DNA from: a virus
Taxonomy: Duplodnaviria > Caudoviricetes
Strand: one strand, 5' to 3'
DNA: 64,000 nt
Virus record (IMG/VR): IMGVR_UViG_3300033412_000476
Location: 23,268-87,267 of that record
A model generated the notes under the pieces. The model did not search any database and was not told where the DNA came from. It saw nothing but the letters and a program-made list of their open reading frames with translations. This document shows positions 28,602 to 30,704 of the stretch, one piece after another (position 1 is the stretch's first letter; every line of letters starts with the position of its first letter). Position numbers and translations under genes: made by a program.

Positions 28602-29564
28602 CTACGAGACCATGATGTAGCCGGCCATGCCGATGCACAGCACGTCCGGCAGCTCATCGACCAAGGCGCGGACGTCGACGGTGACGCCCTCGCCGGGGTT
28701 CCAGATCATCCCGTCACCGGGGAACTGGTGGACGACCGCGCGGCCGGTCGAGAGCCCGAGCAGCGTCGCTTGCGGGTAAGGCGCGTTGATGTTCTGCGGG
28801 CCGACGAACCAGTCGGCCTGCGTGCCGTTGCCGACCTGCCGGATCTTGATCCGGATGCGACCGATCGCGCCGGTCGGATCGGACTGGTCGATGGCCGCAC
28901 CGACCGTGACCGTCATATCGGTGATGAGAATCGGCTCGCTGCCACTGTTGGTGAAGTCGGGCGAGGTGAAATCGAGCGGCTGCGTGGTCTCGAGCTGCAC
29001 CGAGCCCGTCAGGATGTACGGCCGGTGCGAGAGCGCGCCGATGCCGTGGAACGCGACAGCGACCGGCACCGCGTCCGAAGGATCCGAAGCGTCCTGCAGC
29101 TGAACGCGAATCTGAAACGTGTCGCGCACGGCGAGCACGAGCGGCTGACCGCAAGCCACGAAGTCCCAGTGCGCGTTGCCCGCGGAGAACGCCTCGGGGG
29201 CAGCGACGACCTTGTTGCCCCAGAGCGTGAGCGGGAGCGGCTCGCGGTTCATGTAAAACTGATTGTGGAACTGAAACCGCACGCCGATGCGGCCGACGTC
29301 GAGCGGGTTGGCCACCGACGGCTGCGCGTCGGTCGTCAGATAGCGCACGGCCGCCACGATGTGCGTGAGCCGGATGGGAAACTGCTCGCCGTTGTAGAAC
29401 ACCTCGGGTTGGCCCGAGGTGATGATGTTCCGATCCGAGTTGAGGGTGATCTCGTCGAAGAACAGCCGCGGCTCGTTGATGATGCCCTTGCTGAGCAACG
29501 TCTTTCCGAGCTGGATGACGTAGTCGAGGTATTCGGAGGTTCCCTTGGGCGGCAGTTGCGGCAT
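28602..29564 (-). CDS. double-jelly-roll-like capsid protein candidate 1
   Basis: Internal tandem duplication: FYNGEQFPIRLTHI/FTNSGSEPILITDM, GRIGVRF/GRIRIKI, VAVAFHG/LCIGMAG. Confidence 0.55.
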   Translation of the reverse strand: MPQLPPKGTSEYLDYVIQLGKTLLSKGIINEPRLFFDEITLNSDRNIITSGQPEVFYNGEQFPIRLTHIVAAVRYLTTDAQPSVANPLDVGRIGVRFQFHNQFYMNREPLPLTLWGNKVVAAPEAFSAGNAHWDFVACGQPLVLAVRDTFQIRVQLQDASDPSDAVPVAVAFHGIGALSHRPYILTGSVQLETTQPLDFTSPDFTNSGSEPILITDMTVTVGAAIDQSDPTGAIGRIRIKIRQVGNGTQADWFVGPQNINAPYPQATLLGLSTGRAVVHQFPGDGMIWNPGEGVTVDVRALVDELPDVLCIGMAGYIMVS

Positions 29565-29570
29565 GGTGAC

Positions 29571-30704
29571 TTAGCCCTCGATCGTTGCAAAGCCGTTGAA
29601 CGAAACGCCGATGTGATAGACCGGCGTCTCATCGGTCGGCACGGCGTCCATTTCGAGCTCGACGCTCAGCTGACCATCCGGCGGGAGCGTGATCGGTTCC
29701 GGCAGATCCATCACGAGCGCGGGCGTGATGGCGTCGAACACCAGCGCGAGCGGCGCACCGGGCCGCCACCAGTAGGTTTGCGAGCCGGTGCCGATCGTGC
29801 GAATGCGCGTGCCGGTGCGGAGCGCGAGCGGTGACGGCCTTGCGCTCGCGCCAAACTGGGCGACGAGCCGCTGATCGTAAAGCCGCTGATCGATCGCAAC
29901 GCGCAGGTCCGTGATCATCGAGCTGCCGTCGCGCGCGTCGTTCTGCCCAATGAAGCTGTTAGGGTTGCTGCTGCTACCGCTCGGAAAGCGCGAGAGTGGC
30001 GGCCACCAGCTGTCCGAGGTCGGAATGACGACCGGCGTACCGACACCGTAGCCGTCCGGCGGGTAGGGCCAACGCTCTTCCGGATTGAACTCGGTGATGT
30101 TTCCGGTGAACGGAAACAGATTTCGCAGGCACTGCCGCGCCGATCCGGGCCACAGACCGCCCTGCTGCTGATAGAGCATCCACGCGGTCGCGAGCGCGTC
30201 TTCAGCAACGCCGCTCACCCCTACGCCGGGGAACGGCGTGTGCGCGGACAAGTCCCACTCGAGCGAGCCTTGCTTGGGCACGATGAGCGGGTTGTCGAGC
30301 CGCAGCATCGACTGACCCCACATCGAGCTCGGCAAGTACGTCGCCACCTCGCCCGCATCGCCCGCGATCAGATCGTTGGGCGGCTGCGCGGTCGGTTTTG
30401 GCGCCATCGACGCGCAGTCGATGAACTTGCGATCGTTCCAGTGAAACTGCTGCGGCGAGCTGATCTTCAGCCGCGCGCGATTGAGTACTGCGGAGGTCTC
30501 GTTGTAGCCGACGCCAGAAACGTCGGTCGGCGTCCCCTGCAGCAAGTAGTTGACCGCGCAGAGCGCGATGCGCTTGAGCGTGATCGGGTGGCGCTCGCCG
30601 TTGTAGAAGTGCCGGCGCGGGAGCTCGAGCTGCACAGGCGCCGCGTGTGCGTCCACGTTCGCGATGGACCAAAGCGAGCGCGGCTCGTAGTAAAGGCCGG
30701 CCAT
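29571..30704 (-). CDS. double-jelly-roll-like capsid protein candidate 2, paralog of 28602..29564
   Basis: EPR, FYNGERHPITLKRI, IRTIGTGSQTYWW and IGVSFNGF align with candidate 1; start MAGLYY at 30704. Confidence 0.5.
   Translation of the reverse strand: MAGLYYEPRSLWSIANVDAHAAPVQLELPRRHFYNGERHPITLKRIALCAVNYLLQGTPTDVSGVGYNETSAVLNRARLKISSPQQFHWNDRKFIDCASMAPKPTAQPPNDLIAGDAGEVATYLPSSMWGQSMLRLDNPLIVPKQGSLEWDLSAHTPFPGVGVSGVAEDALATAWMLYQQQGGLWPGSARQCLRNLFPFTGNITEFNPEERWPYPPDGYGVGTPVVIPTSDSWWPPLSRFPSGSSSNPNSFIGQNDARDGSSMITDLRVAIDQRLYDQRLVAQFGASARPSPLALRTGTRIRTIGTGSQTYWWRPGAPLALVFDAITPALVMDLPEPITLPPDGQLSVELEMDAVPTDETPVYHIGVSFNGFATIEG

Follow-up and report, generated by a model that had tools for sequence, protein, structure and literature searches.

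The window analysed here is a stretch of 64,000 bases (bases 23268-87267) of one 87,267-bp IMG/VR virus record, IMGVR_UViG_3300033412_000476, and it contains two adjacent minus-strand genes, p320 and p377. An earlier note on this DNA had described their products as double-jelly-roll-like proteins encoded beside three single-jelly-roll proteins, and both open reading frames (ORFs) are present as that note described them. The lengths of the two products are given in amino acids (aa).

28602-29564, minus strand: p320, 320 aa with an ATG start; acidic, without a membrane segment
29571-30704, minus strand: p377, 377 aa counted from the ATG at 30704; acidic, without a hydrophobic segment

The distinctive feature of the locus is a pair of conserved paralogs in which an internal repeat appears, in predicted models, to fold as two interleaved beta-sandwiches. 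The role that we favour for the pair, weighed below against three others, would be that of an accessory structure in the shell of a virus particle.

Gene calls and homologs

The p377 frame extends to 30782 with a GTG start, a longer form that lacks homolog support, and the start was set at 30704 because homologs of 366-399 aa cover the 377-aa form end to end. A hidden Markov model (HMM) of the p320 family, run against 1.84 billion representative proteins, retrieved 151 proteins at E<=0.001 (median length 321 aa), and the p320 homologs form 78 clusters. The same model also retrieved proteins of 348-413 aa at E-values of 7e-7 to 8e-5, which BLASTP assigned to the p377 type. Two immunoglobulin (Ig)-repeat proteins at the tail of this search, P0303 and P0313, carry ASH/DUF1573-type Ig domains and were set aside as probably generic sandwich noise.

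Compared directly by BLASTP, p320 and p377 match at E 6e-5 over their N-terminal parts, with weaker collinear segments following. Family alignments built from 48 p320-type and 57 p377-type proteins align end to end in hhalign over 286 columns (probability 98.3%, E 2.2e-14). These alignments, together with the retrieval of p377-type proteins by the p320 model, establish the two as true paralogs, as the earlier note had proposed.

Neither p320, p377 nor the three paralogs encoded upstream of them (the trio, listed below) has a match in Pfam or PHROG, and profiles of all five gave nothing below E 0.1 among PDB sequences. Translated searches (tblastn) of 50,697 phage records returned no match for p320 and, even at E 1, none for the 232-aa member of the trio.

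Internal repeat

Four motif pairs recur in p320 in the same order, at residues 31/181, 56/204, 91/235 and 168/309, with offsets of 141-150 residues. The earlier note had called this a clear internal duplication. When the N-terminal and C-terminal halves of p320 were aligned by the Smith-Waterman method, the result was not significant, 86 of 1000 shuffles reaching the observed score, and the signal in the sequence is much weaker than had been stated. Profiles of the halves were also compared and scored against a column-shuffle null. The N half of p320 matched the C half of p377 with a score of 30.0 (null 13.6 +/- 2.0, z 8.0) and the C half of p320 matched the N half of p377 at z 3.7, while the comparisons within one protein gave z 2.2 for p320, equalled by the reversed control, and z 0.6 for p377.

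In the AlphaFold model, the strands of p320 fall into two runs of seven, and their lengths (12, 10, 7, 5, 3, 8 and 11; 10, 10, 8, 4, 3, 8 and 12) pair one to one. Because the two runs match in length, they support a structural repeat. With the constant offsets of the motif pairs and the match between p320-N and p377-C, an ancient internal duplication with a repeat of about 150 residues is probable, so that the proposed duplication survives in the predicted structure and, strongly, in one comparison across paralogs but not in the self-alignment. Among the 1.84 billion representatives, candidates for half-size homologs of p320 were rejected, none being convincing as a single-repeat form; the short matches reach only one end of the profile and resemble truncated genes.

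A hairpin motif, P.PITL.PGD.L.VE, lies at about residues 327-368 of p377 (window 29571-29744, minus strand). It underlies both the match to p320-N and a marginal match to VP16 of Thermus phage P23-77, given below, and may be either a conserved jelly-roll element or a convergent motif.

Predicted structures

AlphaFold2 models reached a mean predicted local distance difference test score (pLDDT) of 92.7 and a predicted template modelling score (pTM) of 0.90 for p320, and 89.3 and 0.89 for p377. In p320, an N-terminal helix (residues 10-26) precedes the two seven-strand runs; p377 is without this helix and has longer loops. Structure matches to p320 fall into two classes. Jelly-roll matches span residues ~28-320 with only 104-130 residues aligned, the best of them being the second jelly rolls of double-jelly-roll capsid proteins. 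A second class falls within residues 126-246(267), with 100-106 residues aligned, and includes carbohydrate-binding module family 22 (CBM22), the VP2 projection domain of infectious pancreatic necrosis virus (IPNV) and the FedF lectin domain. The same two classes are found for p377, over residues 1-377 and from 106 to 305-321, with lower Z-scores of at most 5.3.

From these ranges we infer two beta-sandwiches per chain that are interleaved, a domain B being inserted into a jelly-roll-like domain A.

29250-29483, minus strand: p320 domain A, N-terminal part (about residues 28-105), the first three long strands of repeat 1; putative boundaries
28827-29189, minus strand: p320 domain B (about residues 126-246), a compact beta-sandwich, inserted into domain A, that combines strands 4-7 of repeat 1 with strands 1-3 of repeat 2
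28605-28817, minus strand: p320 domain A, C-terminal part (about residues 250-320), strands 4-7 of repeat 2; putative boundaries
29745-30389, minus strand: p377 domain B (about residues 106-320), an inserted beta-sandwich with long loops

The two sandwiches would differ from repeat 1 and repeat 2, because residues 126-246 cross the repeat boundary at about residue 180. The description double-jelly-roll-like is borne out to the extent that two beta-sandwich domains are predicted, but these are interleaved, not a pair of jelly rolls that follow each other along the chain. Alignment ranges that interleave the domains and match one roll at most do not fit a fused tandem such as PM2 P2, which the earlier note had cited, or PRD1 P3.

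A tentative account of this layout is that p320 and p377 are segment-swapped double jelly rolls, in which an ancestral single jelly roll was duplicated in tandem and each sandwich came to combine the front half of one repeat with the back half of the other. If true, the segment swap would be a second, independent route from one barrel to two, distinct from the contiguous double jelly roll of the Bamfordvirae, and it would have occurred in a lineage without a known packaging motor, where three separate shell proteins of one barrel each are also retained.

Conserved gene block

The pair lies in a block of eight minus-strand genes, of which the other six are as follows.

33518-34132, minus strand: 204-aa basic membrane protein (hydropathy scan), opening the conserved block
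32743-33489, minus strand: trio member, 248 aa, sharing N- and C-terminal motifs with the other two
32014-32712, minus strand: trio member, 232 aa, better conserved than any other protein of the block, with 161 homolog clusters
31269-32042, minus strand: trio member, 257 aa, a jelly-roll-sized paralog with an ortholog in all nine related loci
30841-31176, minus strand: 111-aa protein with an N-terminal hydrophobic segment (hydropathy scan), between the trio and p377; locus L003 has an 82-aa gene in this place
28258-28638, minus strand: small beta-rich protein of ~110 aa that probably starts at residue 16 of the listed ORF, an internal Met; it may be a small vertex protein

Nine further loci have these genes in the same order (204-aa membrane protein, 248-, 232- and 257-aa paralogs, small membrane protein, p377, p320, small beta protein), at 29-62% identity. 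An ortholog of the 204-aa protein stands upstream of the trio in 8/9 relatives, and the sequence of the other, L014, starts inside the first trio gene. Compared with the genome studied here, the 232-aa protein of the relatives is 49-62% identical, the other two trio members 34-48%, p320 34-43% and p377 29-36%. Both p320 and p377 are present in every relative, and their rate of evolution exceeds that of the 232-aa paralog; the pair belongs to the core of the module and evolves moderately fast, and it is neither a host-range determinant nor the module's most constrained shell protein.

The 257-, 232- and 248-aa proteins are mutual paralogs with common N- and C-terminal motifs. In ESM Atlas features, the Pfam-bearing clusters nearest to the 232-aa protein are PM2 P2 and PRD1 P3 (cosine 0.76-0.77), which we treat as a lead only. 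A trio profile of 44 sequences, compared by hhalign with p320 and p377 as wholes or as halves, gave E-values of 0.03-0.5, and homology between trio and pair was rejected. The earlier note had suggested that both architectures in one virion would bear on the transition from single to double jelly rolls; because similarity to the trio is not detectable, the pair cannot be read as a duplicated trio-type protein and offers no direct look at that step.

The small beta protein is kept directly downstream of p320 in L003, L005/L006, L007, L013 and L016. Considered as a single-repeat relative of the p320 or p377 halves, it gave a best E-value of 0.012 against them, which is unconvincing. We take it to be similar in size to single-jelly-roll penton proteins such as PRD1 P31. 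An extra 320-aa gene that follows the small protein in L003 and L005 encodes an unrelated membrane protein.

Comparison with known systems

The top Foldseek match of both proteins is birnavirus VP2 (E 3e-6 and probability 0.97 for p320, E 3e-5 for p377). VP2 of infectious bursal disease virus (IBDV) and of IPNV has the same chain topology, with a projection barrel inserted into the jelly roll of the shell, and in the list of structure matches to p320 the projection domain (VP2 residues ~203-338), the only part of VP2 aligned there, aligns as one domain. The three-dimensional arrangement does not superpose, the template modelling (TM) scores of the VP2 matches being 0.15-0.21 with root-mean-square deviations of 20-25 A. 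VP2 also differs in its helical base arms, in having no internal repeat and in belonging to a double-stranded RNA animal virus, and there is no reason to infer common descent.

Of the major capsid proteins that have a double jelly roll (PRD1 P3, PM2 P2, B345 of Sulfolobus turreted icosahedral virus (STIV) and those of the nucleocytoplasmic large DNA viruses), one roll only aligns, whereas the domains predicted here are built from halves of both repeats. PRD1 P3 aligns to p320 by its residues 256-384 only, 123 residues of its second roll. A likeness to PM2 P2 is not seen in sequence profiles: comparison of the pair with PM2 P2 gave E 0.4-0.5 in hhalign, and there is no match to Pfam P3_N/P3_C or P2_N/P2_C. 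No similarity was found to PM2 P1 or to VP11, VP17 and VP20 of P23-77.

The C-terminal part of the p377 family matches P23-77 VP16 marginally (score 30.5, E 9e-4, null 13.7 +/- 2.6). The match is weaker against an alignment of three VP16 sequences (score 28.1, E 0.002) and rests on the one hairpin motif, and p320 and the trio gave E 0.01-0.2 against VP16/VP17-type proteins; the VP16 match may serve as a lead. The Halopanivirales to which such proteins belong (P23-77 VP16/VP17; HHIV-2 and HCIV-1 VP4/VP7) have genomes of 16-31 kb, two capsid genes beside an ATPase gene and no p320-like pair. Each of their chains forms a single eight-stranded barrel, with or without a tower, whereas p320 and p377 are predicted to form two sandwiches and are encoded in a block without an ATPase gene.

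Another genome, SSIP-1, resembles this one in its adjacent structural genes of similar sizes (gp40/gp41 of 320/290 aa and gp44-47 of 210-256 aa), a likeness of gene size only. Of its proteins, 24 were compared by hhalign with the p320, p377 and trio families and gave a best probability of 6.8%, and its genome is half the size of the one studied here.

The enzymes of the GH172/DUF2961 family, which we take to be the cellular homologs of double-jelly-roll capsid proteins, are represented by 8ic8 and 7v1v in the structure match lists of both p320 and p377. Against these enzymes the confident AlphaFold models align one roll only (114-133 residues), there is no sequence or Pfam similarity, and the context here differs in being a virion module. 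Cellular homologs of double-jelly-roll capsid proteins have been described (PMC8812541).

Proposed role and alternatives

We propose that p320 and p377 are a paralogous structural pair of a particle-building module. Domain A, with strands 1-3 of repeat 1 and 4-7 of repeat 2, would be a viral-type jelly-roll sandwich set into the shell or docked on it, and domain B, assembled from the four and three strands between, would be a second sandwich projecting from it. The pair would build an accessory structure, most likely at the five-fold vertex (a penton base, turret or peripentonal ring), joined there by the small beta protein and the small membrane proteins encoded alongside, while the three smaller and more conserved paralogs would form the bulk lattice. 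That the two proteins are virion components at all is likely. That they are accessory shell proteins at or around the five-fold vertex has in our estimate a probability of about 0.5; the earlier note had offered such a role, as special peripentonal capsomers, as its alternative, and it would be the most plausible one. The analysis shows the paralogy, the predicted fold class and interleaved domain layout and the conservation of the gene block; presence in the virion, orientation, vertex location and stoichiometry are inferred.

The nearest precedent in function is STIV, whose A223 and C381 lead us to favour an accessory vertex role. In STIV these two multi-jelly-roll proteins make up the five-fold turret, with a small membrane protein, A55, as their anchor, and the hexons are made of a different protein (PMC10551542). 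The systems differ in that the jelly rolls of A223 and C381 are stacked and contiguous along the chain, whereas the sandwiches of p320 and p377 are interleaved, and there is no sequence similarity between them. STIV moreover has a double-jelly-roll hexon and an A32-type ATPase, whereas the genome here has no recognisable A32 ATPase and the vertex role of its pair is putative.

Several points weigh against this role. It has been read from genes and predicted folds, and no RNA runs are listed as containing the stretch. The division of labour between trio and pair would hold if the trio has the jelly-roll fold presumed for it. The models are of single chains and bear on the fold, and the domain layout was read from structure-alignment ranges. 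The invariant charged residues of p320, which are found in both domains (E31, R33, R147, D148, E210 and H279), could mark an active or binding site instead of lattice contacts. Finally, a low-confidence ESM Atlas model of p320 (pLDDT 0.52) aligns over 218 residues to a GH172 cluster at TM 0.50.

That last alignment would suit the first alternative, in which p320 and p377 are hexon-type major capsid proteins whose subunits, perhaps as p320/p377 hetero-oligomers, trimerise to pseudo-hexagonal capsomers like those of PRD1 P3, PM2 P2 or STIV B345, leaving the trio to serve as cementing, vertex or otherwise minor proteins. In favour of it, each chain has two predicted sandwiches and an internal repeat, the second rolls of double-jelly-roll capsid proteins are the best matches of domain A, the G+C content at third codon positions is the same in p320 as in the trio (0.90), and Atlas features place p320 nearest to PM2 P2 among Pfam-bearing clusters (cosine 0.77, a lead only). 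We consider this alternative unlikely. No double-jelly-roll protein aligns over both domains, the match of PRD1 P3 being confined to the second roll, and domain B extends across the repeat boundary, whereas the known proteins have contiguous rolls. The most conserved structural protein is the 232-aa paralog and not p320 or p377, and the Atlas model is poor where the AlphaFold2 models are confident.

The matches of domain B to the FedF lectin domain, CBM22 and agarase modules, with the many invariant charged residues, point to a second alternative, that of carbohydrate-binding or carbohydrate-active proteins (a GH172-, lectin- or CBM-like tandem), virion-associated or free, that recognise or degrade the host envelope. 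This is still less probable, because no Pfam, NCBI-type or PDB sequence match was found, and the GH172 matches are limited to one domain and ranked below capsid jelly rolls. The pair keeps an invariant position between putative shell genes and genes for small beta and membrane proteins, whereas two fibre-like proteins encoded downstream (listed below) were not detectably conserved in the three relatives searched with the full protein set; in p320, moreover, conservation is even across both domains, and no signal peptide or hypervariable region is evident. Least probable is that the pair acts only in assembly, as a transient external or internal scaffold or a membrane-shaping lattice like that of poxvirus D13, and may be absent from the mature virion: the genome's lack of a recognisable packaging ATPase would imply unconventional assembly and the block is rich in membrane proteins, but the D13 match is to a single jelly roll only, bacterial-virus scaffolds are usually helical, and nothing sets this reading apart from other jelly-roll roles.

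Capsid folds are the main evidence for grouping viruses into realms, and the step from one to two jelly rolls is central to the history of the Varidnaviria. Here a family without a sequence relative in Pfam, PHROG or the PDB appears to arrive at an architecture of two sandwiches through another chain topology. The locus does not bring canonical single- and double-jelly-roll systems together, and it is in this respect less remarkable than first proposed. With their interleaved sandwiches, p320 and p377 would vary the known theme of multi-jelly-roll virion proteins, and they would represent an independent two-barrel route if the segment-swapped account holds. A shell with five jelly-roll-class proteins, their genes in a fixed order, would be unusually complex for a bacterial virus, and the block offers clear targets for multimer modelling, expression and cryo-electron microscopy.

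Genome and lineage

The first 200 bases of the record (1-200) are repeated directly at 87068-87267 (window 63801-64000) with one mismatch. IMG/VR lists the record as linear, with a CheckV completeness estimate of 66%. The terminal repeat suggests a genome that is circular or terminally redundant, and because relatives recur on contigs of 76-89 kb the genome is probably complete.

Its replication and recombination set is of phage type and comprises RecD-like and UvrD helicases, a Sak4-like ATPase, RecA, Dam methylase, ParB, an SNF2 helicase and an integrase. No recognisable terminase, portal, HK97 capsid, FtsK or A32 ATPase came to light when the gene set was scanned with Pfam and PHROG and the genome searched in six frames; PF01580 (FtsK/HerA) and PF04665 (A32) have no six-frame match in the 87-kb record, so that the packaging ATPase (A32/P9 type) that accompanies double-jelly-roll capsid proteins of the Bamfordvirae is not recognisable here. 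In this genome only the helicases, the Sak4-like protein and the polymerase carry Walker A motifs. A 989-aa protein encoded outside the window (L001:5140-8109) combines a family A DNA polymerase with a uracil-DNA glycosylase domain and a zinc ribbon. Also outside it, at 17.8-21.8 kb of the genome (L001:17803-19778 and L002:2809-4788), are four tandem paralogs of 306-335 aa with 30-38% mutual identity, which have no Pfam or PHROG match and are unrelated to p320 and p377.

Known from its genes alone, this soil virus of ~87 kb is apparently tailless, probably membrane-lined and bacterial. The stretch is present in three soil metagenome runs, from which it may derive, and with a small share in one peat run. 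Its lineage comprises ~150 clusters at 50% identity from soil and other metagenomes, and literature searches found no paper describing it. The setting is a widespread, undescribed lineage of large bacterial viruses without recognisable tailed-phage capsid or packaging genes or a packaging ATPase.

A scan of species-representative genomes gave one relative only. One of the nine related loci, a relative of the whole capsid block, is a prophage (L007, CP070815.1:1175009-1195944) in the 4.74-Mb chromosome of a Gemmatimonadota metagenome-assembled genome (MAG). Since this relative sits in a MAG chromosome and the genome studied here carries an integrase, such viruses can be temperate, and Gemmatimonadota is one candidate host phylum. 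Another homolog is labelled as coming from a Planctomycetota MAG.

Other genes of the minus-strand block

The minus-strand block as a whole, at ~22.5-41 kb of the window, further encodes several tail-anchored proteins ending in R/K runs, two very basic proteins and two fibre-like proteins.

37403-39331, minus strand: 642-aa protein at the upstream end of the structural block, with no family match and no Walker motif
27857-28255, 34872-35675, 36707-37393, 39341-39763 and 39780-40403, minus strand: tail-anchored-type proteins, in each of which a hydrophobic segment or stretch close to the C-terminus precedes an R/K run
36035-36688, minus strand: very basic protein, 217 aa with 51 K+R and repeated cysteine-containing motifs
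34169-34525, minus strand: very basic protein, 118 aa with 36 K+R
24341-25750 and 25751-26779, minus strand: fibre-like proteins of 469 and 342 aa, with the first ~65 residues in common and a repeated motif, SVFGRVGAVVA..GDY.AS

At the position of the 642-aa protein, L003 has a 659-aa gene, alike in size and place. The tail-anchored series is consistent with an internal viral membrane, and the two very basic proteins are candidates for DNA condensation. The repeat of the fibre-like proteins is, we presume, reminiscent of phage tail-fibre repeats, and the 469-aa protein has a weak C-terminal match to DUF1349 (concanavalin-like). No conservation of these two proteins was detectable in the three relatives searched with the full protein set, and for this reason they are probably the receptor-binding proteins of the virus.

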